A stretch of DNA of 64,000 nucleotides from an uncultured bacterium (GTDB taxonomy: Bacteria; Patescibacteriota; Minisyncoccia; UBA6257; 2-01-FULL-56-20): assembly GCA_963707865.1 (NCBI GenBank), contig OY970175.1, forward strand, positions 396,305-460,304. Reading direction: 5' to 3'. The first letter of the stretch is position 1, and every line of letters starts with the position of its first letter. Below the pieces are notes generated by a model, which was given only the letters and a program-made list of their open reading frames with translations, was not told where the DNA came from and did not search any database. A program made the position numbers and the translations under genes. This document shows positions 3,817-62,008 of the stretch, one piece after another.

Positions 3817-4388
3817 ATAAAGGCGGACGTCCCCTCTGGGTGGGCAGAAATCACCAGCTTCTTAAAAACAAAAAAATGGCGAATGTAAATAATGCAATAA
3901 AAACCAAGCTTGATATACTGAAAGAGATGTATGCGGAACACCGCGTAACAAGATATTTCAAGGAATGTAGAAGTGTTGAGGATAAAAAGGGGTTTCCGTC
4001 GGAAGTCCGATGGAGTGCATTTCTTGATTTCTTATGCGATAAAACATCTTATAAAGTTTTATGGAAATACCGCCTATGGAAAAAGATGACGAAAGAATTA
4101 TCTGATGAAAGACGGAATGTTTTGGATCGCCTCATAAAAACTTGTATCCCGAAATATCTTGCCGTTGATATGAGCAAAGTTAGTCCACCGGCAACAGGGA
4201 AAGATGAAAGAGAGAGCCGAGTAATAGAAATTACTCCCGATGGAAACGATATGGCATCTATACCAGATTTCTATTTTTCTAGATTGCCCGAAAAATATCC
4301 GAGTTATGGTAAGGTATTGTCGGGTATAACTGGTATTATAATACTTATAATTGGTTTTCTTATTGGCATGTTGTCGAAATCGTTATGA
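3810..4388 (+). CDS. hypothetical protein with C-terminal transmembrane anchor (AT-rich gene)
   Basis: The ORF ends in a hydrophobic C-terminus (GITGIIILIIGFLIGML). Local GC content is clearly lower than in the flanking DNA. The true start may be MANVNN near 3876. Confidence 0.4.
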   Translation: MVNKGGRPLWVGRNHQLLKNKKMANVNNAIKTKLDILKEMYAEHRVTRYFKECRSVEDKKGFPSEVRWSAFLDFLCDKTSYKVLWKYRLWKKMTKELSDERRNVLDRLIKTCIPKYLAVDMSKVSPPATGKDERESRVIEITPDGNDMASIPDFYFSRLPEKYPSYGKVLSGITGIIILIIGFLIGMLSKSL

Positions 4389-8891: not shown

Positions 8892-9323
8892 GAGCCTTGC
8901 GGCTCCATAACTCTTTCGAGCTATGACCCATAGGAGGTTGCTGAACGCGGGGTTCAGTATCTCCTATGGGGTTTTGAGCCATGCCAAGCGATGTTTGGTT
9001 TAGGCTATACAATCCGATATTGAATTGTTAAGAAAACTATACCGCTTGCGACCTTTCCCGTCCAACCCTAGCTTAGATCGTAGGCGTTGCGAAGGGGGAA
9101 GTTATCAACTTGCCTCATTCGGCATTTCGTCGCCCCGTAATGAAGCACGTTCCTAACGATTCTCAAAAAACTTGACAAATGTGGTGTTATTATGTTAAAC
9201 TTACAGCGTTCCTTAACAATGGAAAATTCAAGGTTTCCAGTGAAATGAGGCGAGCGTTGGGGAAGGCAATCAATGTGGCTTCTCGAACACTCGCCTCATA
9301 ACCTGAGCGGGTAGAAATGGAGG

Positions 9324-10247
9324 ATGATAACGATGAATACCACATCGATTACATCCATCACCGAAGGACAGAAAGAACTTTATGAACGCGTCGTCCGCGA
9401 TGCCGCGAAACACGGCACCGCGCTTGCGCTCCAGAAGACCGGCGCTGACCAGATCGGCTGGCAACGCGTCATTGAAAACGGTGACGACCTCCGCGAAGCA
9501 ATCGCGGCGACCATCGTGGCCAGAACAAGGGAACTCTCGCTTTCCAACCAGTTTGCAAACGAGGAAGTGAAATCCACCTACGGCTATCCCAGCGGCTACG
9601 CGCCGAAGCCGATCGAAGCGCAGGTTGCTATCCTGCGCGAGATCTGGCCGAAGCTCAACATCGGCGGCTGGGTCGCGCAGTTTGAACGCGCGGTCGCTCC
9701 CGGCGCCGAAGCACATTTCGTGATCGTCCGCTGGCAAGCGCTCGCGCCGTCCTACGGCGAGGGGTTGGAGAAGGAGCTGTTCCCCGCGCTTCGCGCGCAA
9801 CGGAACGGCACTTTCTACAACTACCGCAATGGCGAACTCGGCCCCGAGCAGCTGCGGCAGCACGAACGCACCATTCGCATGTTCGCGAAGTTCGATGCCG
9901 ACCAGCCTGGCGATGTACTCATTGTCTCGGCCCAGCTCGGCCTCCGTCACCGCGGACGTTCGACACGTCGGGCACATGAGGTGTTCGTCGTAAACGAGTT
10001 TGGTCTCGGCGCATTTCATGTCGGCTGCATCCTGCTGACTCACCCCGAGCGGGAAGTCCAATGGGAACAGCTCCATATGGATTGCCCCGGCGACGAATTC
10101 AGTCCGAGGGCGGATGGCCAGTTCTCGCACGCGCCGTACTTCGGCTTCGGCGACGTCAGGCTCAAGTTCAACGCCCACGGCGTGGGCTATGCTGGCGGGT
10201 ACTGTGGCTCCGCGTCCGCGCTGCTTCCGCAGTATCTGCAACCTTGA
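9324..10247 (+). CDS. DGR variable (target) protein; C-terminal ~45 aa encoded by the variable repeat (VR)
   Basis: A GGAGG motif lies 7 nt upstream of the ATG. The 3' 130 nt form a near copy of a downstream template repeat and differ from it only at positions that are adenine in the template. Confidence 0.7.
   Translation: MITMNTTSITSITEGQKELYERVVRDAAKHGTALALQKTGADQIGWQRVIENGDDLREAIAATIVARTRELSLSNQFANEEVKSTYGYPSGYAPKPIEAQVAILREIWPKLNIGGWVAQFERAVAPGAEAHFVIVRWQALAPSYGEGLEKELFPALRAQRNGTFYNYRNGELGPEQLRQHERTIRMFAKFDADQPGDVLIVSAQLGLRHRGRSTRRAHEVFVVNEFGLGAFHVGCILLTHPEREVQWEQLHMDCPGDEFSPRADGQFSHAPYFGFGDVRLKFNAHGVGYAGGYCGSASALLPQYLQP
10104..10233 (+). repeat. DGR variable repeat (VR)
   Basis: It aligns to 10717..10846 with no gaps. 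All 18 mismatches fall at TR adenines, mostly at codon positions 1-2 of TR AAC codons. The last 24 nt are identical and GC-rich, consistent with the IMH region. Confidence 0.8.
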
Positions 10248-10716
10248 ACGCTTGGATGCTTGGGACTTTTTATTCCCTTATCTTCTTGATCCCTTGCATT
10301 CGCGCAAGTTTTTTTCCAGGGGCTTCCGCACATTCATCATTCATCGCGGCGGCCCCTTTCTCTTTATATATTTAATGATGTTCACGATCCGTGATTTTTC
10401 TGCTATTCTTCTTTCGGGTCTAGGCCAATGCGCGGCCGTTCCGGTTCATGGCACTTGCCAACGGGATCGCCGTCGCCGAACCCTCTCTTCATAGAGAAGC
10501 AGCCAGAGTCCGGGCGATCATAATGGTTTCCCGGAGCGTGCCGCATTGGGGAGATACTGCTTGCTTTTGCCTAGTGCGGGTGTCCTGCGGAAGCGCGGGA
10601 CTGCCGCCGGATGAAATTCAGGGACCAGAGGATATACTTGGCTCCTTTTGAGCGGAAAACCTCAAGTCCCGGTGCTCAGAGATAGTTGCCCGTTGTGGAT
10701 GGGCGGAAGCAATATT

Positions 10717-10846
10717 CCGAAGGCGGATGGCCAGTTCTCGAACGCGCCGTACTTCAACTTCAACGACGACAAGCTCAAGTTCAACACCAACGACGTGGGC
10801 AATGCTAACGAGAACTATGGCTCCGCGTCCGCGCTGCTTCCGAAGT
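10717..10846 (+). repeat. DGR template repeat (TR), rich in AAC codons
   Basis: It is the adenine-rich partner of the VR. For example, TR ttc aac ttc aac gac gac aag corresponds to VR ttc ggc ttc ggc gac gtc agg. Confidence 0.8.
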
Positions 10847-10856
10847 CGCTTCCCAA

Positions 10857-10886
10857 GAGCAATGCCCCGACCTCGGTCGGGGCATT
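10857..10886. terminator. perfect 14-bp hairpin (gcaatgccccgacc tc ggtcggggcattgc) between TR 3' end and avd 3' end
   Basis: This inverted repeat was read directly from the sequence. It lies between convergent features and could act as a bidirectional terminator or as a structural element of the TR RNA. Confidence 0.5.
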
Positions 10887-10889
10887 GCG

Positions 10890-11237
10890 TTACTGCTTCA
10901 CTGAACGGATCCATCCGCCGAGCATCCGACCAACCTCGTCAATCGGCTCCTGAAACGCGAGGTATTTCTTCTGGTCGATGCCATCCGTCTCACGCATGAG
11001 CCGAATGAAGATACGGAGGAAATTCAGCTTCACGCTTGTTTTCTCCAACACGGAAAGCTTTGTTGCCTTCGGCATCTGGCTCGCTGCCATGATACCCTCG
11101 AGGATGTCTAGGATCATGCCGTCGCACCGCTGCCAAATCGTATAGCGATCCTGCTTCGAAATGAGATTGCGGTAGCTATAAAAGAGCTTGTAGAGATCGC
11201 ACGTCTTCTTGAAAATCGGGATGTCAAAATCGTCCAT
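10890..11237 (-). CDS. avd: Avd-like accessory variability determinant (four-helix-bundle protein family)
   Basis: A 115-aa basic helical protein (IWQRCDGMILDILEGIMAAS...KLNFLRIFIRLMRE) sits between the TR and the RT, on the opposite strand. Confidence 0.6.
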   Translation of the reverse strand: MDDFDIPIFKKTCDLYKLFYSYRNLISKQDRYTIWQRCDGMILDILEGIMAASQMPKATKLSVLEKTSVKLNFLRIFIRLMRETDGIDQKKYLAFQEPIDEVGRMLGGWIRSVKQ

Positions 11238-11249
11238 AGTATTTTATCC

Positions 11250-12324
<1,075 letters not shown>

Positions 12325-12461: not shown

Positions 12462-13811
12462 ATGACTACCCAAACCATGGGGGCCAAGGGGACGGGAGCC
12501 CCCACAACAATCCCGTCCGAGGTAAAGGTCAAATACTGTCTGTATGCGAGAAAAAGCACGGAATCGGAAGAGCAGCAGGTGCTTTCCATTGATTCGCAGA
12601 TCAACGAGATGACGAAGATCGCGGAACGGGACGGGCTGGAGATTGTGGAGATTAGGAGGGAAAGCCACTCGGCGAAGGCGGTCGGCCAGCGGGAGATTTT
12701 CAACGGTCTCCTCGCGGACATCAAGGCCGGCAAGTTTAACGGGATCCTCACCTGGGCGCCGGACCGGTTGAGTAGGAACGCGGGTGACCTCGGCAATCTT
12801 GTGGATCTCATGGACCAGAAACACCTCATTGAAATCAGGACTTACAGCCAGAAGTTCACGAATTCGCCGAACGAGAAATTCATGCTGATGATCCTCTGCT
12901 CCCATGCAAAACTGGAGAACGACAACAAATCGGAGAACGTGAAGCGGGGCATGCGGGCGCGGTGCGAGATGGGCCTGCGGCCCACGGTCGCCCCCACGGG
13001 ATACCTGAATGAGAAGCGGACGGATCGGCCGTGCCAAGTAATCGTGGATCCCGTGCGGGCTCCGATCATAAGAAAGATATTTGAGAAAGTGGCGCACGAC
13101 CAATGGTCGGGACGGAAGCTCTACCATTGGCTCAAAGACGAGGTGAAATTCACGACGCCGTACGGGAAGCCGCTCGCGTTGAGCAACATCTATCTGATCC
13201 TCAAGAATACCTACTACTACGGCGTGTTTGAATACCCTTCCGGCAGCGGCAACTGGTATACGGGGACCCATACACCCATTATCACGAAGGAACTCTACGA
13301 TGCTGTGCAGGAGCAGCTCACGCGGAGCGAGATCACGAGAGAGAACAGAGAGTTCGCCTTCACAAAGCTCATCACCTGCGGCCTCTGCGGTTCGGGCGTC
13401 TCCGCTGGCGAGAAATGGAAGCACTTCAAGAACGGTACGAGCGCCCGATACGTCTACTACGGCTGCACAAAGTCGCGGGACAAGGAATGCCCCTGCGGGT
13501 ATATCACAGAGGAAGCCATCGTGCAGCAGATCATTGGCATTATTGATACCTTGGATATCAGCGAGCTGGGCATCAGGCACAAGTTCAAGGATGAGATCAT
13601 GCGGTACAACAAGTTCCGGAAGATTGCCTTGAAGGGCGCAGCGAAAGAAGCGGCCCAGGAGGATTTTGACCTCAAGGCCTATGCGATCTATCTCTTGACG
13701 GAGGGGTCCATCAGTGAGAAGCGGGAGCTTCTGGGCAACCTGAGGAGTCGGTTGATCCTCAAGAACAAGGTGCTGACCCTGCAAGAGGAACCGAAAGAAA
13801 AAACAGAATAG
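12462..13811 (+). CDS. large serine recombinase (resolvase/invertase N-domain + recombinase domain + zinc ribbon)
   Basis: It has the catalytic serine motif YARKSTESEEQQ, a recombinase-domain middle region, and the C-terminal CGLCGS...YYGC zinc ribbon. Confidence 0.8.
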   Translation: MTTQTMGAKGTGAPTTIPSEVKVKYCLYARKSTESEEQQVLSIDSQINEMTKIAERDGLEIVEIRRESHSAKAVGQREIFNGLLADIKAGKFNGILTWAPDRLSRNAGDLGNLVDLMDQKHLIEIRTYSQKFTNSPNEKFMLMILCSHAKLENDNKSENVKRGMRARCEMGLRPTVAPTGYLNEKRTDRPCQVIVDPVRAPIIRKIFEKVAHDQWSGRKLYHWLKDEVKFTTPYGKPLALSNIYLILKNTYYYGVFEYPSGSGNWYTGTHTPIITKELYDAVQEQLTRSEITRENREFAFTKLITCGLCGSGVSAGEKWKHFKNGTSARYVYYGCTKSRDKECPCGYITEEAIVQQIIGIIDTLDISELGIRHKFKDEIMRYNKFRKIALKGAAKEAAQEDFDLKAYAIYLLTEGSISEKRELLGNLRSRLILKNKVLTLQEEPKEKTE

Positions 13812-13825
13812 TTTACACGAAAGCA

Positions 13826-13869
13826 ATACCGCGGAAACATCCGCGGTATTGCTTTCGTGCGGGTACCGT
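13826..13869. terminator. perfect 19-bp stem hairpin (cacgaaagcaataccgcgg aaacat ccgcggtattgctttcgtg) after the recombinase
   Basis: This inverted repeat was read directly. It is not followed by a T-run, so it may be a terminator or a recombination/attachment site. Confidence 0.4.
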
Positions 13870-13927: not shown

Positions 13928-14005
13928 TGGTACCGCCATCGGGATTTGAACCCGAGTTTTCGCCGTGAGAGGGCGACGTCCTAGGCCGGGCTAGACGATG
14001 ACGGC
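13928..14005 (-). tRNA. tRNA-Glu (anticodon CUC), CCA encoded
   Basis: The sequence folds by hand into a cloverleaf with anticodon loop CU-CUC-AC. Its D-arm and anticodon arm closely resemble canonical tRNA-Glu. Confidence 0.75.
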
Positions 14006-18579: not shown

Positions 18580-19101
18580 TTAGCTCGACCTTTTTGCTTT
18601 CTGATCCAGGAGATACATGAATGATCTGATTGGAGACGCGAGCATACCAAAAAGCTGTGCAAGGAGCACTTCGCGCGGAGGCAGCTTGCCGATCGAAACC
18701 ACCTGCGCCGCATCTACGGGAAGATTGCCTGTGACGTCATAGCCGCCGAGCACATGCTTAACCCATATTTGTTTATCCCCTCCTTCCGGAATTTCAAGCC
18801 CTGAAAAAAACCTAAACGCCGGTCCCGCAACCATATCAATTCCTTTTTCGGAAAAAATGGTCCCTACAGAGATTTTAAATTGCTTCAAATCAATATCCAT
18901 CCCCCGCTCTTTCAAAAGCAAGGCAAGGAGCCGCTTCTTGATCACGAGAAAACTCGCGTCAATTTTCTTGAGTTCAGCACGGAATTTGCGCACGTCTTCC
19001 GCGGTGATCTTTGTGAAATCAGCAAAGATGAGCGCCCTACTCTTCAGAAGCAGCGTTTTTGCTTTTTTTAATTCTTCGGTTTTTTGCACTTTTGTTTTCA
19101 T
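18580..19101 (-). CDS. rplJ: 50S ribosomal protein L10
   Basis: It lies immediately upstream of rplL and has an L10-like N-terminus. Confidence 0.85.
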   Translation of the reverse strand: MKTKVQKTEELKKAKTLLLKSRALIFADFTKITAEDVRKFRAELKKIDASFLVIKKRLLALLLKERGMDIDLKQFKISVGTIFSEKGIDMVAGPAFRFFSGLEIPEGGDKQIWVKHVLGGYDVTGNLPVDAAQVVSIGKLPPREVLLAQLFGMLASPIRSFMYLLDQKAKRSS

Positions 19102-21308: not shown

Positions 21309-21383
21309 GGGAACTATTTTAGCCGATTCGCGGAAAATTGGCAAATCGCGCCGCACGCGCCGGCGCCGCTTTGAACCATTTTG

Positions 21384-21671
21384 AGCCGATGGTCGGATTT
21401 GAACCGACGACCTACTCCTTCATTGCTACCTCAACTTCGCAACGCTTATATGAGGATTAGACTGTATCTTGCGCATACCACTCTCGCGGCGCAGCGCCCC
21501 TTGCCAGTCGTTCGGGCGGGAAAAATAATTTTGCTCTCGCCACGGTCTTGGCCCTTGCTCCACGCATTGGCCTTTAACCGTAATTCGGGATTCGCAGGCA
21601 GGTTTCCCTACCCGTGGGCATGACCCCTTCGGTCCACCATGGAGTTGCTCTACCAGCTGAGCTACATCGGC
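21384..21671 (-). tRNA. tRNA-Thr (anticodon GGU) interrupted by a 215-nt group I intron in the anticodon loop
   Basis: The 5' half (GCCGATGTAGCTCAGCTGGTAGAGCAACTCCATGGT) and the 3' half (AAGGAGTAGGTCGTCGGTTCAAATCCGACCATCGGCT) together form a perfect cloverleaf once nucleotides 21421..21635 are removed. Confidence 0.6.
21421..21635 (-). ncRNA. group I intron (small, Azoarcus-like size) between tRNA positions 36 and 37
   Basis: The 5' exon ends in U and the intron ends in G. Intron nucleotides 12-17 (GUCAUG) can pair with the 5' exon end CAUGGU to form P1 with a U-G pair at the splice site. A GGGAAACC segment is also present. Confidence 0.5.
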
Positions 21672-26370: not shown

Positions 26371-26476
26371 AGGTATCCCGTTGGACTTTGTTTTGGAGAG
26401 CATCCCGGAGCCACGGCGGCTTGAAGCAACCTTTAGGTTGCTTGCCGTGGCGAGGGCGAGCGGCGTTTTCCCGCCG
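26371..26476 (+). repeat. structured repeat family B, copy 1 (upstream of dnaE)
   Basis: It is about 85% identical to 61884..61988. The differences are concentrated in two stems and are compensatory. Confidence 0.6.
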
Positions 26477-26607
26477 GAGAAAACGACCGCGTCTCCATAA
26501 AGGGAAATCTGGCGAAGCGATCACTATCTTTTTAATGAATGGTTTAGTATCATGTAATAGAAATTTAATGTTCTGCATCCTCGCTTGCGGGGGCAACATC
26601 AAGAACA

Positions 26608-31771: not shown

Positions 31772-32218
31772 ATGCAGCGCTACAGAAGGATTGAGCGAAT
31801 ATGGTGTCCCGCGCTTCGAGAATATGTTGTGTTCAACAGAATCGGATTTCAGCATCTCGTTCGCGGGGGAAGCGTCCAACGGCCAAAAAGCGAGCAAAAA
31901 CGAAGATTCAAATTAATTCCTTACATAACGGACATCCTTACCGATCCGAACGCCAGTATCACTGAAAAAGAAGGGACTATCAAACACCAAATGAAAATCC
32001 GAGGAGAGAAAATCCCCGTGGCATCGCCGGCACATTTCTGGGTATTCACCAATCGGCGTAATGGGCAAACAATCAAGCTCGTAGTCAGGCAATTCAACGG
32101 CAAAGAAAAACATTTTCTTAGCATTTATGCTAAAAAACCCTCCAAAAATGAAGGGTTCCTTAGCATGCCTGCTGTCGACAATGAAACATCGACAGGGACA
32201 ACCGCCCCGCAGGCATAG
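31772..32218 (+). CDS. hypothetical protein
   Basis: The ORF has moderate coding bias and no recognisable motif. Confidence 0.35.
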   Translation: MQRYRRIERIWCPALREYVVFNRIGFQHLVRGGSVQRPKSEQKRRFKLIPYITDILTDPNASITEKEGTIKHQMKIRGEKIPVASPAHFWVFTNRRNGQTIKLVVRQFNGKEKHFLSIYAKKPSKNEGFLSMPAVDNETSTGTTAPQA

Positions 32219-32282
32219 TTTTATATTAGGACACCGTATCCTAAAGTCAAATATCTTTTAAGAATTTTTTAATGAAAATCAA

Positions 32283-32520
32283 GCGCACAGGCCTGGATTC
32301 GAACGGAGGAATAAGCGTCCCTTTCCACTTTTGGGAAATCTAGCGGAGTGGCGAGGAAAATCAACGGGGCATAAGCTGCCTGCCCGCCTTTGCGAACCGT
32401 GCGGAGGCCGAGCTAAAAATCCGCGAGCGAAAAGAAAATCCGCCGGGTGCCCCCGCCGAAGGCGAGAGGGTGGCAGATTTTCGTTGCGAGCGGGTTCCGA
32501 AAAAGCGGAAGGGGTGCTTA
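32283..32520 (+). repeat. repeat family A, long copy A (head motif + core), 3' end overlaps greA stop
   Basis: It has the head motif GCGCACAGGCCTGGATTCGAAC, and its core shares the sequence cccccgccgaaggcgagagggtggca...gggttccgaaaaagcggaagggg.gcttattctatc with copies B and C. Confidence 0.65.
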
Positions 32521-32976
32521 TTCTATCTTCACGATCTCATACGTCGCCGCCCCTGCCGGCGTCGCAACCTCCACCGTCTCCCCCACTTTTTTCTTTAAAA
32601 ACGCCTTGCCGAGCGGCGATTCGTCGGAGATGCGACCCTCCTCCGGCTTCGCTTCATACGAACCGACAATGGTGTACGCCACAGTTTTCTCCCCCCGCCG
32701 CGCTGTTACAGTAGAACCAACGGTTACGGTGTCGCTCCCTTCCGTTTTTTTAATTGTCACCGCCTGTTTCAAAAGATCCTCAAGCTCGGCGATCCGCGTT
32801 TCCACGTTCGCCTGTTCCTCGCGCGCTTCGGCATACTCCGAGTTCTCGGAAAGGTCGCCGTATTCCTTCGCCTGCTTCAAACGTTCGGCCACTTCCACGC
32901 GCTTTTTACTTTTGAGTTTTTCCAGCTCCTCCGCAAATTCTTCAAAGCGCTCTTTCGTAAGATATTGTTTCGTCAT
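32518..32976 (-). CDS. greA: transcription elongation factor GreA
   Basis: It has a coiled-coil N-terminus and the C-terminal domain GSTVTARRGEKTVAYTIVGSYEA. Confidence 0.85.
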   Translation of the reverse strand: MTKQYLTKERFEEFAEELEKLKSKKRVEVAERLKQAKEYGDLSENSEYAEAREEQANVETRIAELEDLLKQAVTIKKTEGSDTVTVGSTVTARRGEKTVAYTIVGSYEAKPEEGRISDESPLGKAFLKKKVGETVEVATPAGAATYEIVKIE

Positions 32977-33747: not shown

Positions 33748-34503
33748 TCAGACAGTGAGAATCCACGGGCCGTTCTTGGTGACCGCCACGGTATGCTCAA
33801 AATGCGCCGCGAGCGATCCGTCGGCTGTGGCCCAGCTCTCGTCGCGCAATTGTTTGAGGGGGGAATTACCAAGCACGAGCATCGGCTCTATCGCAAGCAC
33901 TATGCCCTCCTGCAGTTCTTCGCCTTCTCCCTTACGGCCCACATTGAGCACGGTCGGATCTTCGTGGAGCGAGCGGCCGATACCGTGTCCCGTAAGTCCG
34001 TCCGCAACGCTGCACCTATTCTTTTTTGCCGTCTTTTCTACTGTGTAACCGATGTCGCCCAATGTCTTGCCAATCCTTACCTCCGAAATCGCAGCGCGGA
34101 GCGCTTCTTTTGTGGTCACAACGAGCCGCTCCGCCTCCTTGCCGACCTTCCCTACTGCCACGGTAAGCGCCGCGTCAAGATAAAATCCTTTGTACAAAAG
34201 ACCGAGATCCAGTTTCACGAGATCGCCATCTTTCACAACGTAATCGGCTGGCTGGCCATGCACAACGACATCGTTCAACGAAGTACAGAGCGAATACGGA
34301 TAGGCACGGCGCGCGCCGGCGGGCCGATAGTGCAAAAACGCCGGCTTCGCTCCGGATGTATGGATGAGTTGATACGCCAGCCGGTCAAGGTGCTTCGTCG
34401 TTACGCCCGCACGCGTTTCTTCCGCGAGACGTCGTAGCACCTCTCCAAGCCGCCGACCGCCTTCCGCCATCACCTCAATCTCTTCAGGCGTCTTGAGGAT
34501 CAT
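33748..34503 (-). CDS. map: methionine aminopeptidase type I
   Basis: Pita-bread fold metal-ligand motifs are present (DLVKLDLG, GHGIG, EPM). Confidence 0.85.
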   Translation of the reverse strand: MILKTPEEIEVMAEGGRRLGEVLRRLAEETRAGVTTKHLDRLAYQLIHTSGAKPAFLHYRPAGARRAYPYSLCTSLNDVVVHGQPADYVVKDGDLVKLDLGLLYKGFYLDAALTVAVGKVGKEAERLVVTTKEALRAAISEVRIGKTLGDIGYTVEKTAKKNRCSVADGLTGHGIGRSLHEDPTVLNVGRKGEGEELQEGIVLAIEPMLVLGNSPLKQLRDESWATADGSLAAHFEHTVAVTKNGPWILTV

Positions 34504-35098
34504 ATTTGTTTACGGCCGCAGCGATCCTTTTCCAAACCTCGGCCCGAGTTCCCAAGCCAGAGATCTTTTTAAAGACGTATTTCTTTTTAAAGAACGCCAC
34601 CACGCGCGTAACCTGCTCTGCATAATACCGTCTCCGGTTTTTGATCGCCCGTTCCCGATCATCGCTCCGCTTTATCAGTTTTCCTCCTGCGTATTCCCTC
34701 CGTTTTTCCGCCCGCTTTATAGTTTCAGACATCGGAACGCTCAAATAAATGACCTTCGGATCGCTTCGCTTATGCTGCCTGAGCAATCTTGCAACCAGCT
34801 TTGCTTCTCCGATCATTTTTGGAGTGCCATCGAAAAGAATGCCCTGCCCGCGAGGAACGGCGCGGATGACATGCCGGTGAATGTCCCGCACGAGCCATGT
34901 GGGAGTGAGCTTTCCCATGCCAGCGGTCCGCGCATAGTCAAACCTCCTCCGCACCGTGGGCTTCCTCAATTCCCGTCCCATATCAAAATCATAAAAGCTA
35001 TACTTCTTCACAAGGCGGGCTGCTTGCGTCGCTTTTCCGGACGCCGGATCCCCCAGCAAAATAAGATTAAAAGGTTTTTTGCTCGTACTTTTGTTCAT
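34484..35098 (-). CDS. adk: adenylate kinase paralog 2 (short, no lid zinc motif)
   Basis: It has the P-loop LLGDPASGKATQA. The start was trimmed to MNKSTSKK. Confidence 0.7.
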   Translation of the reverse strand: MNKSTSKKPFNLILLGDPASGKATQAARLVKKYSFYDFDMGRELRKPTVRRRFDYARTAGMGKLTPTWLVRDIHRHVIRAVPRGQGILFDGTPKMIGEAKLVARLLRQHKRSDPKVIYLSVPMSETIKRAEKRREYAGGKLIKRSDDRERAIKNRRRYYAEQVTRVVAFFKKKYVFKKISGLGTRAEVWKRIAAAVNKYDPQDA

Positions 35099-35681
35099 GC
35101 GCGTGCGCACCCGCGATCCCCAGCGCGGCATCAATGTTCTTCTCGATCTCTTCGATTGAAGGTCGCCCGTCAACTGCAATAAAAGTTGTCTCTTTCTTCA
35201 AATACTCTGTCATTGGCACCGTCGCCTCCTCATAGGCGCGGAGGCGCTCATTGATGCCTTCGGGCGTGTCGTCCGCCCTCCCCTCCTTTTGGGCACGGAG
35301 CAACAACCGTTTGAAGGTTTCCTCCCTCGGCAGGTCCAGAAAAACAGTCAAAGGTTTTTTCCTGTTCTGGCTTTTGAGAAAACCGATCAAAAACTCCGCC
35401 TGCCCAATCCGCCTCGGAATACCGTCAAAAACGATTCCCTGGTCGGCAGGAATGGTCGCGAGCTTAGCCTTCGCAACTTCAATAATGAGCTCGTCGGAAA
35501 GCAACACTCCCTGGTCAATGACGGAAATCTTTTTAGCGAGAGGAGTATCTCCCGCTCTTATCTCCCGGAGGATCCCACCCATCTCCCAAAACAAAAATCC
35601 CAGCTTCTCCGCCAGTAATTTTCCCTGCGTCCCCTTCCCCGATCCCTGCGGGCCGAGGACAAGTACGGTGTCAAAATCCAT
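35067..35681 (-). CDS. adk: adenylate kinase paralog 1
   Basis: It has the P-loop LVLGPQGSGKGTQG and the NMP-binding region GGILRE. Confidence 0.8.
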   Translation of the reverse strand: MDFDTVLVLGPQGSGKGTQGKLLAEKLGFLFWEMGGILREIRAGDTPLAKKISVIDQGVLLSDELIIEVAKAKLATIPADQGIVFDGIPRRIGQAEFLIGFLKSQNRKKPLTVFLDLPREETFKRLLLRAQKEGRADDTPEGINERLRAYEEATVPMTEYLKKETTFIAVDGRPSIEEIEKNIDAALGIAGAHAHEQKYEQKTF

Positions 35682-36869: not shown

Positions 36870-37011
36870 AAACTATACCACAACACCGGGAGAACGGGTC
36901 TTTCGTTCTATTTAGCGCACAGGCCCGGACGATCTTCGAACAGTCCTTTCCGTGGGTATCCCAAGCTGTGAAAAGATGCCGATTTTTCATTAGGATGGTA
37001 AGATACGAAAT

Positions 37012-37311
37012 ATGAAAGAATCTTTTCCGGATTCATCGGGAAGTGCTCTCACAGAACACGATTCTCAAAAAGAGCATCGAACACCAATGGAAATTACGAC
37101 CGCCAAAGGGTCTGTTTATAAATATTTGCCAGATGGGCGTACTCAGCGCTTTAAGCAGGCAACGGGAGAATTAAACGATCCTCAGGATTCCATCGTTTTT
37201 ATACCTCCTTGGGACATGATAAAAGCACCCGCCATGAAAGCGTATCCAGAAATATTTGGGCATATTGAAAACGAAGCTCAATACGAACAAGTCTTATTGG
37301 AATACGCATAA
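37012..37311 (+). CDS. hypothetical protein (AT-richer islet)
   Basis: An ORF with no recognisable motif. Confidence 0.3.
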   Translation: MKESFPDSSGSALTEHDSQKEHRTPMEITTAKGSVYKYLPDGRTQRFKQATGELNDPQDSIVFIPPWDMIKAPAMKAYPEIFGHIENEAQYEQVLLEYA

Positions 37312-37335
37312 CTGAGTGGTCGTACCATAAGGATA

Positions 37336-37572
37336 ATGGACGAAAATAGCAAAGAGTTTTTCAGTAATCAGGAAATAGCCGCAGCCACTAATATCTTTTT
37401 GGCTTTTATTGATAGAGCTAATTCCAAAAATACCTTCACCTTACCGGCGTCAAAAGAACCCAAAATCGGATACGAAACTTATGATACGCGGAAATTCATC
37501 GGCAAAGATGGGCAAACTTATCGTGAACGGCATATCGGCAATAAAGTTGTCGACATTAAATACTCATCATAA
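37336..37572 (+). CDS. hypothetical protein (AT-richer islet)
   Basis: An ORF with no recognisable motif. Confidence 0.3.
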   Translation: MDENSKEFFSNQEIAAATNIFLAFIDRANSKNTFTLPASKEPKIGYETYDTRKFIGKDGQTYRERHIGNKVVDIKYSS

Positions 37573-37580
37573 GAATTCTC

Positions 37581-37830
37581 GTGCACGGGACAGGATTCGA
37601 ACCATAGATAGTTCAGAGTGGAAGATCTGAGAGCAAACACAAAAGAAAAGAGCGCCCTCCTCCGCTTTTGAGGAACCTAGCGGAGGCGAGGAATAAGCGC
37701 GCTCCGAGTGAGCAGAAAATTTGACGGGACCCCCGCCGAAGGCGAGAGGGTGGCAAATTTTCGTAAGCGAGCGAGGAGAGCGCCCGAGCCGAAGCGGGTT
37801 CCGAAAAAGCGGAAGGGGGCGCTTATTCTA
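37581..37830 (+). repeat. repeat family A, long copy B, 3' end overlaps secY stop
   Basis: It has the head motif GTGCACGGGACAGGATTCGAAC and a conserved 165-nt core. It ends gcgcttattctatcc, which supplies secY's final codons (IE) and stop. Confidence 0.65.
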
Positions 37831-47513: not shown

Positions 47514-47696
47514 GGAACAAAAAACCGGCTCTTCGCCGGAAGTTCATGCAAATATCCGACCAAACCCTGCCCTCAAGCGGGGTCGTCCTTCACAAAAACG
47601 AAAGACGTCTTCCGAGGCGCCAAAGCGCGATAGATATTGGCATAAAACTTCCGAGGAAACCTTAGGGAAAAGTATAACAAAACAGGGCCCGCCGTG

Positions 47697-48005
47697 TCAA
47701 TTGATCGGCAAAAGCCGGCGTTTAAAGGCGTCGAATTCCTCACAATCCACCTTTTTATCCAATATTTCTATGATGCGCGTGAACCATCCTTCCATCTCGT
47801 TTTTGGTAGGCAACATCGCGATTTTCTGTTCCAAAGCGTCCATACGCCCCTCAACTTTATCCAATATCTTGCCAACAGCAATATAGCCTTCCAGAGTTAT
47901 TTTGAATTTCGCCTCTGTTTCCTCAAATAAAATCATCGTCTTCGGATCTTTGACGGGAAACGTGAATGTTTTCGTAAGATGCCGGACCTCAATCGCCTTT
48001 TCCAT
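47697..48005 (-). CDS. small coiled-coil protein, paralog family member 1
   Basis: It is similar to 48122..48400 and 60699..60980, sharing an ...E.KF.....EG......K.D... pattern. Confidence 0.4.
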   Translation of the reverse strand: MEKAIEVRHLTKTFTFPVKDPKTMILFEETEAKFKITLEGYIAVGKILDKVEGRMDALEQKIAMLPTKNEMEGWFTRIIEILDKKVDCEEFDAFKRRLLPIN

Positions 48006-48121
48006 ATTTCGTCAGTATAAAGGGTAAAACGTTTCTCTCCAAGAAGGAGCGTGAACGCGATCAAACCGCCTTTCCTCGATGCTCTCCATTAATCCTTGCA
48101 ATAGTGCTCCGTAAATTACCT

Positions 48122-48400
48122 TCACCCACGATCCTGTCTTCCCAACTTTATCGCAATGACGTCCAATCGGGCATCCATCTTATCAAACCGCTCAATTAAA
48201 TAATCAAACTTATAATCTATCTCCTCAAACTTTTTATTCATCGAAACTTCCACATTGTCGAATTTCTTATGCAAGGCTCCGAAACCTTCCATCAACAGCC
48301 TGAACTTGGTATCAATTTCTTCGTAAAGCACTCCCAACTTTCGCTGGTTTTTATCCAATCGCCCTAGTTCCAGTTCAACAGAAACTCTTTCCATAACCAA
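48122..48400 (-). CDS. small coiled-coil protein, paralog family member 2
   Basis: It is a paralog of 47697..48005. The family A head motif lies 55 nt upstream of its start. Confidence 0.4.
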   Translation of the reverse strand: MVMERVSVELELGRLDKNQRKLGVLYEEIDTKFRLLMEGFGALHKKFDNVEVSMNKKFEEIDYKFDYLIERFDKMDARLDVIAIKLGRQDRG

Positions 48401-48491
48401 ATCTTAAAAGGTTGGGCAAAATAGTCAAAGGTTCTTTAATAATTTTTTAATCCTGTGCACAGGCCTGGACGATTTTCGAACGATTTTAGGC

Positions 48492-48830
48492 CTAATATGG
48501 CCGATAAAGAAATACGATTGCTAAGACAATGATTATCCCAATGACGGCGGTAATCCCGTGTATCCACCGCAGCAATGTTATACGCTTCTTAATGTTTATA
48601 TCTCGTGCAAGAGATTCGTGTGTTTCGGCAAATTGTATAAAGTATCCAAATCGGAGATTGATGATCCCCTTACTGAGCGGGAGAATTTTATAGAGCACCG
48701 GCTTTTTATATTCTTCCCAATCGGCAGGGTGAGATTTTTTGAAATAGGACTTCAGGCTTCCCCATAAAATGAAATGGGCTATTACGAGCAGCACGAATAT
48801 TCCACCTAAAATGGCCATTCCCAGATTCAT
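48492..48830 (-). CDS. small membrane protein (2 TM)
   Basis: It has hydrophobic N- and C-terminal helices. A head motif lies 39 nt upstream of its start. Confidence 0.4.
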   Translation of the reverse strand: MNLGMAILGGIFVLLVIAHFILWGSLKSYFKKSHPADWEEYKKPVLYKILPLSKGIINLRFGYFIQFAETHESLARDINIKKRITLLRWIHGITAVIGIIIVLAIVFLYRPY

Positions 48831-48915
48831 ATGACTATTCTATCACAAGCTCTAAAAACAAAATCATAGCGCACCGGCCTGGACGATTTTCGAACAGTTC
48901 TGATTGTGATGCAGG

Positions 48916-49182
48916 TTGGCAGATGATAAACTAGATAGCATGGATTGGCGGAATACCCCGGTGCGAGCTAGTTGGGGCATTAGTTACTTTCAGCGAGCCG
49001 TTATTGGATTGGCTTTAATTCTCATTGGGGTTATATCCAGCGCCTTCGTTCAATTCCTATCTGGACTCTTCCTTGGAATAGATTTAGACCCTTTCACGGC
49101 TGGTCTTATTGGGGTGTTGATTGTTGGGGTTGTGATTCTGATTTACGCCGTTTCTCTCAATTTTCACAAGAGAAAGAAATAG
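48916..49182 (+). CDS. small membrane protein (2 TM)
   Basis: It has two hydrophobic helices. Confidence 0.35.
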   Translation: MADDKLDSMDWRNTPVRASWGISYFQRAVIGLALILIGVISSAFVQFLSGLFLGIDLDPFTAGLIGVLIVGVVILIYAVSLNFHKRKK

Positions 49183-49265
49183 CAACATAACATGCACAGG
49201 CCTGGACGATTTTCGAACGATTCTTTCTCTTTCCCAATATCTAGGGAATTGTAGTCTTTTCTAAG

Positions 49266-50268
49266 ATGTTTCATGTCCGCACATTTGTCCCCTCGATAGC
49301 TTGAAGATATTCAACCGGCGTCTTTCCCGCAAGGGCAAGATGAGGACAGACCGTGTTGTACCAGGCGCAGTACGCGGCCTGTTTTTGTTTCGCTTCGGCC
49401 ACCGTGCGGAATGATATCTTGTTCCAGAACCGTTCGCGGTCATTGCGATGCGACCGCTCCACCTTGCCGTTCTGCGCAGGATGCCCCGGGGCGATGAGAT
49501 AGTGCGTCATTTTTTGTTTTTCACAAGTAACATCAAAAGGATGCAACCGCGGCTTCAGGGGATCTGCTGACTTCGGATATCCCACGTACCGGTTCGTGAA
49601 GATTGATCCGTTATCGGTCTTCACCGCACGGATGCGGAAGGGTGCCGTAGCAATGACTTTCTCGAGAAACAAGATCGCGGTCCGCGTGGATTGTTCTTGG
49701 GTCACCCAGAGATGCCGCCACCGCGTGCAGCAATCAATCGCGGTGAACTGGTAGAGCCATTGCCCCTTGAATCTCCGCACATAAACGACATCAATCTCGA
49801 TGATCTCTCCGGGAAACGTGGCGGTCGGTTTCCACTTTGCTTTGGGCACCAACCGTTTTTTGGTTCTTGAGAGCCCCTCACGTTTCAGGACTTTGGCAAT
49901 ACCCCGCACGGAGAGCTTCAGGCCCTCGCGGGCGAGGAGATACATGAGGACATCAGGACCCAGATCCGTTGCTGTTCGCAACGATCTGATCCGATTCACG
50001 ATGGTCTGTGAGAATTGTTTCGGATGCGTGTGCGGCCTGCGCGAGTGCGACACGAGCGCATCGATCCCGCCCCTGCGATATGCCGCCACCCACCGCTTGA
50101 GCGTGCGATATGAAAACGGCGCGTGGGCAGCAATGTCCTTGATACTCATCTCTTTCTCAAGATGCGGGGTGATCCACCGCATCCGTTCCTCTGCTGCGTC
50201 TTTTGCGAGTGTTTGTGGCATATTCCCCAGCTTACACTTCAAGGGGCCATATGTATGTGCAGAGTACC
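49266..50268 (-). mobile_element. IS481-family insertion sequence (~1.0 kb) with imperfect terminal inverted repeats
   Basis: A single DDE transposase is flanked by GGGGACAAATGTGCGGACAT (left end, reverse complement) and GGGGCCATATGTATGTGCAG (right end). Confidence 0.6.
49271..50221 (-). CDS. IS481-family DDE transposase (rve integrase core)
   Basis: It has an N-terminal HTH and a DDE core (IDVVYV...AVKTDNGSIF...HPAQNGKVERSHR). Confidence 0.75.
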   Translation of the reverse strand: MPQTLAKDAAEERMRWITPHLEKEMSIKDIAAHAPFSYRTLKRWVAAYRRGGIDALVSHSRRPHTHPKQFSQTIVNRIRSLRTATDLGPDVLMYLLAREGLKLSVRGIAKVLKREGLSRTKKRLVPKAKWKPTATFPGEIIEIDVVYVRRFKGQWLYQFTAIDCCTRWRHLWVTQEQSTRTAILFLEKVIATAPFRIRAVKTDNGSIFTNRYVGYPKSADPLKPRLHPFDVTCEKQKMTHYLIAPGHPAQNGKVERSHRNDRERFWNKISFRTVAEAKQKQAAYCAWYNTVCPHLALAGKTPVEYLQAIEGTNVRT

Positions 50269-50358
50269 AAGAAGAATTGACTACGAGCAATATTTATGCT
50301 ATAAATCCTCGCAGAAAGACGCACTATCGGAATCAAAACTTAAAAGGAAAGGTGCCTT

Positions 50359-51249
50359 ATGAGTCAAATTAATGTGGTCGTTCCGGATGGTTCCATGCAG
50401 GCCGTCATTACCGACCTTTTTGCAAAGGCAGGGTTGCCTGTGGCGATAGAGAAAAGACGGACGAAAGAAGGTAGGGTCGGGGTTGACTGGATCAAGCGAG
50501 TTGCCTTCCAGAGGCCGCAGGAAATCCCGCAATATCTCGACGCCGGTCATTTTGACGTTGCCGTCGTGGGCGAGGATTGGATCGCTAACTGGGGCTTAAC
50601 ATTCCCCGTTCTGCTCAAACTGCCCATCGGCCGCAGCGGCAACAAGCCCGTCAAAATCGTTCTGGCGGTGAATCAAGCCAGTGGTTTTCGACGGGTGGAA
50701 GAGCTGCCTCAAGGCTGTGAAGTGGCAACTGAATACGTCCAACTAGTCGAGAGGTTCTTCGCTAGGCAGGGAAGGGCTGACATCGAGGTTGTCCCATCCT
50801 TTGGCAACACCGAACACAAGATTGGATTCGGTGCGACGGCAATCGTTGACGTGACAGAGAGCGGCGATTCTCTGAAAGAAAATGGACTCGAAGTGATTCA
50901 CGAAATAATGGAGTCCAATACCGTTGTCGTGGCGAACCATGATTCGCTGGCCGATGAATCTAAGCGTCCATACATCGATTGTCTCGTCCAACTCATCAAG
51001 GGTGCATTTCAGGCATCGCAACACGTAATGCTTGTAGCCAATGTACCCAAGAAGGTTCTGGGCGATGCGAGTCGCATCATCGGAGGACTCAAGGGGCCTT
51101 CCTGTTCGCCGCTCATGGGTATCATAGGATGGTTCGCCCTCCAATCTGTTGTGGCTCGAAAAGACGAACAAAAGATAATTTTCGAGTTGCTGCAGATAGG
51201 AGTCACCGACATCCTCGTTAATCGAGACATTCCCTTGATGATGTCTTAG
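50359..51249 (+). CDS. hisG: ATP phosphoribosyltransferase (long form HisG)-like
   Basis: It contains EIPQYLDAGHFDVAVVGEDWI and AIVDVTESGDSLKENGLEVI, which resemble the HisG catalytic core, and has a C-terminal regulatory-like domain. Confidence 0.55.
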   Translation: MSQINVVVPDGSMQAVITDLFAKAGLPVAIEKRRTKEGRVGVDWIKRVAFQRPQEIPQYLDAGHFDVAVVGEDWIANWGLTFPVLLKLPIGRSGNKPVKIVLAVNQASGFRRVEELPQGCEVATEYVQLVERFFARQGRADIEVVPSFGNTEHKIGFGATAIVDVTESGDSLKENGLEVIHEIMESNTVVVANHDSLADESKRPYIDCLVQLIKGAFQASQHVMLVANVPKKVLGDASRIIGGLKGPSCSPLMGIIGWFALQSVVARKDEQKIIFELLQIGVTDILVNRDIPLMMS

Positions 51250-51348
51250 ACGCCGCAAAGGCAACATGGCTTTCGGGCGGTCGCCAAATCATAAAGTACC
51301 GCCCACAACACACCACCTCAGACGTGGTGTTGCGCATTTTTATATTTT

Positions 51349-51590
51349 GTGCGCAGGCCAGGATTCGAACAACTAATCTCATTAATATAAACCGTGCCGG
51401 CAGGGGTGTTGGGGTCTCCTGTGTTTTTGTTTTCGAAGAACCTAGCGGAGGCGAGGAATCAGCGCTCTCCGAGCGAGCAGAAAATTTGACAGGACCCCCG
51501 CCGAAGGCGAGAGGGTGGCAAATTTTTGTAAGCGAGCGAGGAGAGCGCCCGAGCCGAAGCGGGTTCGAGAAAACAAAAACACAGGAGACC
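51349..51590 (+). repeat. repeat family A, long copy C (between hisG and rpsJ terminator)
   Basis: It has the head motif GTGCGCAGGCCAGGATTCGAAC and a core almost identical to copy B (cctagcggaggcgaggaat.agcgc...gggttc). Confidence 0.65.
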
Positions 51591-51618
51591 AAAAACTCCC
51601 GCCGAAGCGGGAGTTTTT
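51591..51618 (-). terminator. rho-independent terminator immediately after rpsJ
   Basis: The minus-strand RNA reads AAAAACUCCCGC UUCG GCGGGAGUUUUU, starting 1 nt after the rpsJ stop. Confidence 0.7.
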
Positions 51619-51619
51619 G

Positions 51620-53283: not shown

Positions 53284-53449
53284 GCAGAGCCCATTCCAGA
53301 ACGCAGCAGCATGAGGATTATAAATCATTTTCGAGCGAGCAACGTGAATCCCGACGAAGGAATACCCTTGTGGTATTGCGAGGAGGGATTCGCGTTGCGC
53401 AGCCGAAAATGGACATAAGAGTCATACGGCTACGTTCTGGAATGGGCTC
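53284..53449 (+). ncRNA. candidate structured RNA: 18-bp outer stem enclosing nested hairpins, followed by T7 run (between rplU and tuf)
   Basis: The arm agagcccattccagaacg (53286-53303) pairs perfectly with cgttctggaatgggctct (53421-53438), and a ttttttt run follows. An inner stem pairs cgtgaatccc with gggattcgcg. Confidence 0.35.
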
Positions 53450-53760
53450 TAGACTTTTTTAACCCGAACCTCCGCATATTCCTGCCGATGTCCCTTCTTT
53501 TTGCGAAACCGCGTTTTGGAATGATACTTAAAAACGATCTTTTTTTTCTCGCGCCCCACGCCGAGCAATTCCGCTTCCACCGAAATATTCGTAAGGTAGG
53601 GAGTACCGATTTCCACACGGCCGTCCTCGGACCGCAAAAGCACCTTATCAAAAACCACGGCGCCGCCTTCGGCGCTTGTCTTTTCTATTTTTAGCTTCTC
53701 CCCGGCGGAAACTTTGTATTGCTTCCCGCCAGTTTGAATCACCGCGAAGTCCTGTGCCAT
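53449..53760 (-). CDS. rplU: 50S ribosomal protein L21
   Basis: It begins MAQDFAVIQTGGKQYKVSAGEKLKIEK. The start was trimmed from the ORF-track call. Confidence 0.85.
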   Translation of the reverse strand: MAQDFAVIQTGGKQYKVSAGEKLKIEKTSAEGGAVVFDKVLLRSEDGRVEIGTPYLTNISVEAELLGVGREKKKIVFKYHSKTRFRKKKGHRQEYAEVRVKKV

Positions 53761-60980: not shown

Positions 60981-61338
60981 AGCATACGGATGATTAAAAT
61001 TATATAAAAAAATTGTTAAATTTTTATTAAAAACTATTTGACTTTTGAAACACTTTCTTTATCCTGAAAGTAGGTTCCTGCCTCAGGAATAAGGAGTAAT
61101 TCTTACTCTTAGATTTCGACCCTACCGGGGCAATACGTTCATTTCTTATTTGTCGACGAATAAGAAATGAATCAGGAACGTGTCGCCTATCCAACGGTTG
61201 AGGCCACCACCCTACCCCGCCCGATCGTCTTTTTTCCGCGGGGAGGGTAAACCGCAAAAGGATAAAAAGCTCCAAGCGTCTGCCCCTGAAGGTCAGAAAG
61301 CCGCCGTGCACTGCGGGCGCCAATCGAAAGATTGGTGG

Positions 61339-61791: not shown

Positions 61792-61867
61792 CGATTAAAT
61801 TTTTCTAAACCACGCGGGTCTGGACGATTTTCGAACAGTTCTCGGACTTGGCTTTGACAAAGTAGCT

Positions 61868-62008
61868 GCGCATGAGCGTTGGTTTTTCGGAGCATCCCGG
61901 AGCCGCAACGGCTTGAGGCGACCCTCAGGTCGCCTGTTGCGGCGAGGGCGAGCGGCGTTTCCCCGCTGGAGGAAACGACCGCGTCTCCGAAAAACCAACG
62001 CTCATGCG
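61868..62008 (+). repeat. structured repeat family B, copy 2, enclosed by a 25-bp perfect outer stem, abutting fusA stop
   Basis: The core 61884..61988 matches copy 1. The outer arms are gcgcatgagcgttggtttttcggag and ctccgaaaaaccaacgctcatgcgc. Confidence 0.6.

Follow-up and report, generated by a model that had tools for sequence, protein, structure and literature searches.

What kind of element could appear three times, on one strand, at the ends of the housekeeping genes greA, secY and rpsJ? The question is raised by a 64,000-nt stretch of contig OY970175.1 (the window), from an uncultured bacterium of the Minisyncoccia. An earlier note on this DNA had described a ~240-nt "family A" repeat consisting of a 22-nt head, a variable spacer and a ~165-nt core, and had read it as a single structured RNA or MITE-like element (for miniature inverted-repeat transposable element) that inserts at gene 3' ends and rewrites them. 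The three copies are indeed present, at 32283, 37581 and 51349, and in each the head, spacer and core follow one another in the same order. In our reading, the repeat is probably a juxtaposition, in this Minisyncoccia lineage, of two independent components: a structured hairpin, which corresponds to the core, and a recombination-type tail derived from the 3' end of tRNA-Tyr, which corresponds to the head. Hairpin and tail abut three times because, at the ends of greA, secY and rpsJ, the hairpin is immediately followed by the start of an array bounded by such tails; the apparent head-spacer-core unit arises because three arrays stand behind family-A hairpins, with copy A duplicating another composite. 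What survives of the original reading is the core, which is conserved, has an RNA-like structure and is found repeatedly where genes end, whereas the single unit and the rewritten gene ends do not.

The recurrence itself is beyond chance. The 26-nt core segment CCCCCGCCGAAGGCGAGAGGGTGGCA occurs exactly three times in the window against none in shuffles, and the head segment GGATTCGAAC exactly three times against 0.26 expected. Cores B and C are nearly identical, as had been noticed, with 143 nt in common at 93% identity; copy A is more diverged, a decayed, nested copy. Relatives were gathered in several ways, and the homologous or related contig stretches are numbered L017 to L113. A semi-degenerate pattern for the apical stem, scanned across one genome per species, returned 74 loci, six of which are true homologues; the other 68 are chance matches in GC-rich genomes. 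Four of the six lie in the Minisyncoccia metagenome-assembled genome SPRUCE 501 and two in MFD03726.bin.c.5 (an 888-kb chromosome), whose SecY is 97% identical to that of the window, and hairpin homologues were also found in peat contigs. L075, a 21-kb locus on an MFD03726 contig, is syntenic with window 29.8-52.3 kb and spans all three copy sites. Further SecY relatives provided L076-L078 and L110-L113, and a scan of metagenomes with the tail pattern provided L079-L109, mostly peat contigs from related bacteria of the Candidate Phyla Radiation (CPR). Three copies fall within the 64-kb window and three (L041, L062, L075) within the 37 kb examined of the MFD03726 genome. The core pattern found no match in Joint Genome Institute (JGI) metagenomes or viral contigs, the tail pattern none in viral contigs, and phage and plasmid collections held no match to the hairpin element or to a cassette; the exact GreA sequence of the window is not on record in the contig index. 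The searchable literature on CPR MITEs, repeats, integrons and islands yielded no earlier description of the hairpin or of the tail arrays.

The internal inverted repeats described earlier are real: every copy forms one long hairpin when read on the minus strand, in the sense of greA, secY and rpsJ, and folding z-scores are negative for all three (Table 1). The family-A core forms a rod-like hairpin of ~153 nt on this gene-sense strand, and an alignment over that length, with eight and later ten copies, gives a consensus structure of 47 pairs. Standard pairs fill 94.6% of cells (10 distinct copies), compared with 41-56% when the partners are slid; double-sided changes affect 20 pairs, compared with 3-7 in the slid controls (10 copies), and none of 500 column shuffles matched any observed measure. 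Helices are swapped whole and compensatorily between subfamilies, as in GGGCGCUCUCC/GGAGAGCGCU versus GGAAAAUCUAAC/GUUGAUUUUCC. Covariation of this kind shows the hairpin structure to be under selection. The folding strand is the gene-sense strand, since G-U cells outnumber A-C cells by 47 to 6 and high scores with the hairpin model R1 are reached in sense only (140-175 bits, against ~19 bits in antisense). The apical ~45 nt and two internal-loop motifs (UCGCUC) hardly vary, and the conserved ~153 nt carry inverted termini of ~12 nt, TTTTCTTGAACC...GGTTCTTCGAAAA. No insertion sequence (IS) with termini like TTTTCTTGAACC/GGTTCTTCGAAAA was seen, and the IS481-type element of the window lacks such ends. 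Nor do the copies have direct target-site duplications; their flanks are inverted complements of each other and make up an outer stem. An Rfam 15 scan of the window at gathering score gave no match at the three sites, and a permissive scan there gave chance-level matches only (<=23 bits, with cut-offs of >=35 bits). At the secY site the spacer too is homologous in L075 and L091, and its small stem covaries.

Every family-A copy lies where a transcription unit ends, 0-45 nt past the terminator or stop codon of the upstream gene and in that gene's sense, and usually has a promoter or a convergent gene downstream; copy C, for example, follows the rpsJ terminator, as the earlier note had it. The conserved ~153 nt are flanked in each copy by a near-perfect outer stem peculiar to that copy, and the 5' strand of this stem often consists of the upstream gene's last codons and stop (copy A, L017/L062, L034, L045). 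In copy A the outer stem GAATAAGC/GCTTATTC takes in the last codon and the stop codon of greA, and in copy C it is locus-specific, perfect and 22 bp long.

Occupancy of these positions changes between relatives. The secY end is a hot spot among relatives with 86-97% SecY identity: family A occupies it in the window, L075 (11279-11434, orthologous to hairpin B), L091 and L111, in two subfamilies and with the L091 copy nested; two other families of long hairpin are found there, one in L110 and one in L113/L076; L078 has a bare 9-bp hairpin, GATAGAATA-AGCCG-TATTCTATC; and L077 and L112 have no hairpin. At the greA end L075 carries a different hairpin core (z = -9.2), whose outer stem again pairs with GAATAG, and L076 an ordinary terminator. 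By this comparison, the presence of a hairpin at a given site is dynamic between relatives, and it is from gain, loss and replacement at fixed sites, together with nesting, that mobility is argued. Family A does behave like an interspersed, probably mobile repeat: presence differs among close relatives, a nested copy exists and the secY end has been reached repeatedly and independently. On this view the hairpin would be a structured repeat, mobile and interspersed, for which hairpins close to stop codons are the places to land in or build on. Its outer stem could form in two ways: the element might insert into the loop of an existing stop-codon hairpin, a model favored by the 9-bp hairpin of L078 and by the repeated arrivals at one site, or a palindrome might grow outward through template switching. 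Once landed, its RNA hairpin may have two roles at the 3' end: to end or insulate transcription, and to protect that end of the mRNA.

Family A is one of several such structures. At least five further families of 130-170-nt gene-end hairpins combine a conserved core with a locus-specific, near-perfect outer stem, often with the stop codon in the stem (Table 1). Short-word BLAST among the long-hairpin families found no similarity to family A or to one another, except for the pair at 61868 and 26387; the hairpin at 53293-53443 gives a weak R1 match (E 3e-4).

Might the hairpin instead be a purely DNA-level selfish element of the REP/RAYT or IS200/IS605 type (PATE-like), with an HUH/Y1 transposase recognizing its apex? 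The apical ~45 nt are conserved far beyond what stability needs, orientation is strictly strand-specific, there is no target-site duplication, and single-stranded DNA tolerates G-T pairs, all of which would suit such an element; IS elements that target hairpin loops are known (PMC3184786). However, no Y1 or RAYT gene was seen in the DNA examined, the annotation of which is incomplete, and the copies are always placed at transcription-unit ends in gene sense. Furthermore, compensatory change keeps whole helices between orthologous copies, which fits selection on a transcript, although single-stranded DNA is also compatible. We regard this explanation as unlikely.

The 22-nt head is a different matter. 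Its sequence is that of the tRNA-Tyr(GUA) 3' end in reverse complement, covering T-loop through discriminator (positions 53-73): on the minus strand it reads GTTCGAATCC-NGNCC-NGNGC-R-C, corresponding to the T-loop, the 3' strand of the T-stem, the 3' strand of the acceptor stem and the discriminator. The 5' strands with which the T-stem and acceptor stem would pair are absent at the heads, and neither ARAGORN, in standard mode and in intron mode with introns up to 400 nt, nor Rfam found a tRNA at the three sites. A 27-nt (D6-type) variant, GTTCGAA-nATCG-TCCAGGCCTGTGCRC, is present at five further sites in the window, on the same strand, all intergenic and without a core. In L096/L097 the first site of the array is the 3' end of an intact tRNA-Tyr(GUA) with the acceptor GCGCAGG/CCTGCGC, and tail C differs from the tRNA-Tyr 3' end of L096 by one base; on an unrelated contig, L086, the last 22 nt of a tRNA-Leu(UAG) are identical to the tail. 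Elsewhere the 22-nt site comes after a 5S rRNA gene, tRNA-Asp, protein genes or other hairpins, and it is therefore independent of family A. The tRNA-Leu(UAG) gene itself (L086 12812-12929, minus strand), on a metagenome contig of 39% G+C, has a 33-nt intron at the canonical position 37/38. Three other identities for the tail were considered and set aside: a Xer/dif-like site (28 bp, with two 11-bp arms and a 6-bp spacer), because the tail consensus has no dyad symmetry by eye; a retroviral-type primer-binding site, because there is no TGG complementary to CCA; and a DNA-uptake sequence, because the motif has one orientation only, is too rare and is nearly absent from the close relative.

What the tails do is suggested by the company they keep. 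In related contigs the 22-nt and 27-nt sites line up in tandem on the same strand, with at most five sites per array and spacings of 370-1160 nt, and in every array the first site is of the 22-nt type and all later sites are of the 27-nt type. Each interval between sites is one cassette of 0.35-2.1 kb, usually a single gene with its own promoter and terminator. The cargo is accessory—NUDIX (several), HD, GrpB, inositol monophosphatase, HisG and small hypotheticals—and the arrays are bordered by housekeeping genes. In the window, cassette V2 is absent from L075, with no Pfam family for its open reading frames (ORFs), and the whole V1 block is also absent there, a tRNA-Asp being found instead. 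That tRNA-Asp(GUC) lies with a promoter-terminator unit between rpsJ and rplC (L075 735-806); both are lost from window 47514-51619, which holds 4.1 kb of cassettes instead. In L088/L099 the counterpart of window ~60.6-62 kb has a tail array with a tRNA-Asp at its start, and the L099 locus orthologous to the tail at 61811 has a five-site array.

Comparison with L075 places the window's tails exactly at synteny breakpoints. Homology between the window and L075 ends at 51591, the base of hairpin C; at 37610, ~8 nt short of tail B; and at 32297, a position within tail A. Within the syntenic stretch there are seven tails in the window and one in L075; at the site orthologous to tail A, L075 has the 27-nt type (18780-18805). 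L091 carries the same site as tail B in the same place, along with an ortholog (4017-4043) of the D6-type tail that closes V2, and between these same two secY-side sites it has a different one-gene cassette in the opposite orientation. Finally, L093:158-548 and L102:1677-2064 have unrelated flanks but match at 95% identity over a full unit, from the opening base of one tail to the closing base of the next. These alignments establish the anatomy of the arrays, the tails at breakpoints, the exchange of cargo at the same sites and the occurrence of one cassette at two unrelated loci. The window also has, downstream of the secY cassette region, two adjacent adenylate-kinase-like genes (ADK domain; 34484-35681, minus strand), with a corresponding pair in L075 (14468-15666).

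From this arrangement we infer that the 22-nt tail is an attachment-type site for site-specific recombination. The first site of an array would be "attB/attL-like" and the later 27-nt sites "attP-derived"; because the left part is of the tRNA type in the first site and of the variant type in those after it, the crossover would lie towards the acceptor end. The recombinase would act in trans and would most likely be a tyrosine integrase that originally targeted tRNA-Tyr. Could the tails be regulatory or uptake motifs instead, or the inert scars of long-dead prophages? Several do lie 27-40 nt upstream of promoters, and no recombinase is nearby, but many come after terminators and not before promoters; nor would such motifs be expected to show a single orientation, arrays with one gene per interval, the uneven numbers in window and close relative, or the breakpoints, cargo swap and recurrent cassette described above. 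We find this improbable.

The tRNA likeness itself invites another explanation, in which hairpin and tail together are tRNA-related: a tRNA-Tyr that a giant insertion interrupts, a split tRNA half or a tRNA-like "t-element" by which RNase P/Z would process mRNA 3' ends. The tail is in perfect tRNA register from T-loop to discriminator, the spacer has a stem-loop with a covarying stem, and the window does hold a tRNA-Thr with a large insertion. Against this stand the negative ARAGORN and Rfam results, the missing 5' strands of T-stem and acceptor, the 27-nt variant, which breaks the T-loop, and the orthologous secY site in L075, which has no tail. Taken together, these make a tRNA-related unit very improbable.

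The proposal of a single ~240-nt MITE-like element, which would insert at gene 3' ends and supply their last codons and stop, drew on the constant order of the three parts in the window and on GATAGAATAAGC, which copies A and B do have in common and which overlaps the greA and secY stops. The gene ends of relatives tell against it. SecY (423 aa) has the C-terminus VREYEGIE in 105 of 120 relatives, down to 79% identity and including relatives without the element or with other elements. GreA ends in YEIVKIE, YEIVKVE or YEILKIE in L075, L076 and L077 (K[IV]E-stop in all three), L077 being an empty greA site at which lysS begins 17 nt past the greA stop. Judged by these relatives, both ends are ancestral and not rewritten by the element, an outcome that the earlier note had itself named as telling against its claim. 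The common GATAGAATAAGC follows from two circumstances: greA and secY both end naturally in ATAGAATAR, and copy A is a relocated paralogue from the secY site. Specifically, copy A shares unique sequences with the nested secY-site copy of L091—namely the outer stem that belongs to the inner element, and the outer element's 3' half—and is on that account a relocated, partly deleted paralogue of the secY-end composite; its left junction falls in the shared microhomology of the ATAGAATAR ending. The unity of the repeat fares no better, since L017, L029, L041, L045 and L062 have the core without the head, as do most other family-A copies, the L075 secY hairpin has a homologous spacer without a head, and heads also occur without family A. 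Family A in addition fails as a MITE because it lacks direct target-site duplications. Overall, the single element has next to no chance of being right. That the core encodes a small protein, with the PPPKARGWQIFV motif on the plus strand, can be dismissed almost outright: the peptide can be called within an ORF in each of the three copies, as first described, but such ORFs run antisense into greA and secY, no Pfam family matches the ORFs of either core strand, substitutions amount to compensatory base-pairing, and in L075 it is exactly the PPPKARGWQIFV segment that carries a +1 indel and an altered apical stem with the hairpin intact, so that the core is not coding and, given the shift of frame, not a fragment of a protein gene either.

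We therefore return to an independent hairpin and tail as the probable account, against which several observations weigh. Covariation and the G-U bias fit single-stranded DNA of the same strand as well as RNA. The hairpin is only ambiguously like an intrinsic terminator, and not a canonical one, because the U-rich tract CUUUUCUUUUGUGUUU follows it only in secY-lineage copies and in none of copy C, L017, L029, L041 and L045. Family-A copies are few, 12 in about five genomes, and their locus-specific, perfect outer stems are not accounted for by any standard transposition mechanism. On the side of the tails, there is no intact tRNA-Tyr in the window, and most arrays other than that of L096/L097 begin at a free-standing 22-nt site; the origin of these sharp-left-edged sites at non-tRNA loci lacks an explanation. 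In the sampled arrays and their flanks, ORF clustering and Pfam turned up only NUDIX and other cargo plus housekeeping genes, and neither a tyrosine nor a serine recombinase. Two recombinases alone are present in the window: one unit includes an IS481-type DDE transposase, and a large serine recombinase (12462-13811) lies 18 kb from the nearest tail. The IS481-type transposase was considered as mobilizer and rejected, as no inverted repeats link its ends to tails or hairpins.

Known systems resemble either component without matching it. Structured intergenic repeats are typically 100-170 nt, non-coding and intergenic, form stable hairpins, and often lie in the gap between two convergent genes or at a 3' end; they are transcribed together with a neighboring gene, vary between strains and can affect termination or mRNA stability. 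REP/BIME, ERIC, the Neisseria Correia elements, pneumococcal BOX/RUP/SPRITE and Bacillus bcr1 are examples; repeats of this kind are reviewed in PMC3184786. Family A is like REP, ERIC, Correia and SPRITE-type repeats in hairpin fold and gene-end location, but has no sequence in common with them, a low copy number and conservation of the apex and interior rather than the termini; its outer stem is locus-specific and may include the upstream stop, and it has neither a target-site duplication nor a known partner transposase. Compared with REP/BIME in particular, which are palindromes of 20-40 nt in hundreds of copies, it differs in unit size (~153 nt) and in copy number. Mobile elements that seek out hairpins offer a second comparison. 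Group IIC introns insert after terminator stems, and among insertion sequences IS1397 and ISKpn1 target REP loops, with IS110/IS621 found at REPs (PMC3184786). Insertion of this sort would account for outer stems that run on without a break, for repeated arrival at one and the same secY-end hairpin, and for the "empty" hairpin of 9 bp in L078, although such elements encode their own enzyme whereas family A is non-coding, and here the mechanism is one we infer.

For the tails, the closest likeness is to elements that accumulate at tRNA genes. Cis-mobilizable elements (CIMEs), for example, form by accretion. Partial tRNAs are known as integration scars in islands, and the tycheposons of Prochlorococcus are a case in point (bioRxiv 10.1101/2020.12.28.424599). 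As in an island, direct repeats of the tRNA-3'-end type bound lineage-specific DNA here. The tail arrays also share with tycheposons and CIMEs the tandem arrangement, scattered partial tRNAs, units without an integrase and a streamlined genome. However, most units here consist of a single gene and measure 0.35-1.2 kb, which is far smaller; the sampled arrays contain no integrase; and most start at a non-tRNA 22-nt mimic behind housekeeping genes, even inside the S10/spc operon. Integrons and CALINs, the latter being clusters of attC sites without an integrase, also have single-gene cassettes, one site orientation, small accessory cargo including NUDIX-type genes, and sometimes no integrase. 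Yet the site here is a tRNA-derived 22-27 nt, without the 57-141-nt attC fold or its boxes (R''/L''/L'/R', RYYYAAC...GTTRRRY), no IntI gene is present, and cassettes have their own promoters and either orientation.

To our knowledge, little has been established about how CPR (Patescibacteria) gain and lose genes or end their transcripts, and their genomes are tiny and streamlined. It is conceivable, and we offer this only tentatively, that a CPR subclade runs an undescribed system of cassette exchange, in which free-standing mimics of the tRNA-Tyr end behind gene-end hairpins would be landing pads, a recombinase acting in trans would shuffle single-gene cassettes with promoters of their own, and the hairpins would insulate. 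If so, genomes of <1 Mb without obvious mobile-element machinery would have a route of gene flux like that of integrons or tycheposons, with landing pads at the ends of essential operons, even at rpsJ-rplC and secY-adk, where the hairpins would make insertion harmless. Even apart from this larger proposal, the hairpin is a new, covariation-supported element without an Rfam family that marks transcription-unit ends, and the tails offer a testable mechanism for micro-scale gene flux, by single-gene cassettes, within the most conserved bacterial operon. The sequence models of hairpin and tail can be searched for across CPR genomes and metatranscriptomes, and the notion of an element that rewrites the ends of greA and secY is corrected.

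Table 1. Hairpins, tails and tail-bounded cassettes in the window, with other gene-end hairpins in relatives
Feature	Coordinates	Strand	Remarks
Family-A hairpin, copy A	32305..32523	-	decayed nested copy; model R1 64.8 bits; z -2.4
B-type tail A, 22 nt, GTTCGAATCCAGGCCTGTGCGC	32283..32304	-	abuts hairpin A, upstream of conserved promoter
Family-A hairpin, copy B	37651..37823	-	starts at secY stop codon; R1 140 bits; z -4.6
Spacer, hairpin B to tail B	37603..37650	-	small stem-loop, conserved loop AUCUUCCR
B-type tail B, 22 nt, GTTCGAATCCTGTCCCGTGCAC	37581..37602	-	first site of secY-adk cassette array
Family-A hairpin, copy C	51413..51590	-	after rpsJ terminator; R1 150.6 bits; z -6.7
B-type tail C, 22 nt, GTTCGAATCCTGGCCTGCGCAC	51349..51370	-	first site of rpsJ-rplC array
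Head-like motifs without core	36915, 48455, 48869, 49193, 61811	-	27-nt D6-type
D6-type tail, 27 nt, GTTCGAAGATCGTCCGGGCCTGTGCGC	36915..36941	-	closes cassette V2; upstream of NUDIX promoter
Cassette V2	36942..37580		ORF99 (37012-37311) and ORF78 (37336-37572), both +; window-specific
Array V1	48455..51348		three tail-bounded units at rpsJ-rplC junction
V1 unit 1	49219-51348		hisG-like gene and IS481-type transposase
V1 unit 2	48896-49192		88-aa ORF
V1 unit 3	48482-48868		112-aa ORF
V1 D6-type tails	49193-49218, 48869-48895, 48455-48481
D6-type tail	61811..61836	-	adjoins hairpin of other family (61868-62009)
Other gene-end hairpins, window	53286-53450, 61249-61416, 61868-62009, 26387-26501	-
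Other gene-end hairpins, relatives	L075 17630-17775; L076 11270-11420; L110 3765-3935; L113 2070-2235; L083

Several other features of the window deserve mention. A textbook diversity-generating retroelement (DGR) occupies 9324-11915 (plus strand). Its 131-nt repeats, at 10103-10233 (the 3' end of the ORF 9324-10247) and 10716-10846, have 18 differences, and all 18 differing positions are adenines in the second copy, the template repeat; the reverse transcriptase-like ORF at 11250-11915 matches RVT_1 (E 9.5e-6). Just upstream lies a LOOT RNA (Rfam, 85.6 bits; 8892-9006, minus strand). The large serine recombinase (plus strand; Resolvase, Recombinase and Zn_ribbon_recom domains) adjoins tRNA-Glu (13928-14005), has a perfect 20-bp palindrome beside its gene (13816-13859), and is probably part of one integrated element with the DGR region. 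The tRNA-Thr(GGU) at 21383-21671 (minus strand) has a 215-nt insertion after anticodon-loop position 37, detected by ARAGORN in intron mode; the insertion has no Rfam match at E<=1, group I intron models included.

Close to the greA copy, a conserved unit resembling a small RNA is found at window ~32130-32222 (minus strand), at L075 18860-18950 and in L017. It comprises an UP-element/TTGACT-16-TAATAT promoter, a structured body of ~60 nt and an intrinsic terminator, and has no Rfam match at gathering score. The window copy runs antisense to a conserved 148-aa ORF (31772-32218) at its 3' end, while in L017 the unit is divergent from that ORF's homologue. Lastly, an AT-rich box, TTTAAnAATTTTTTAAT(G), occurs in the window at 31702, 32257 and 48435 (plus strand) and 22284 (minus strand), and in L045 (7179, 7756), L062 (2650) and L017 (6334). 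Downstream of it, at ~9-11 nt, come -10 hexamers, and the box when reversed also stands ahead of TTGACT -35 boxes; it is probably the lineage's promoter or UP element. An ATG often stands ~7 nt after the -10, a spacing that suggests leaderless genes.

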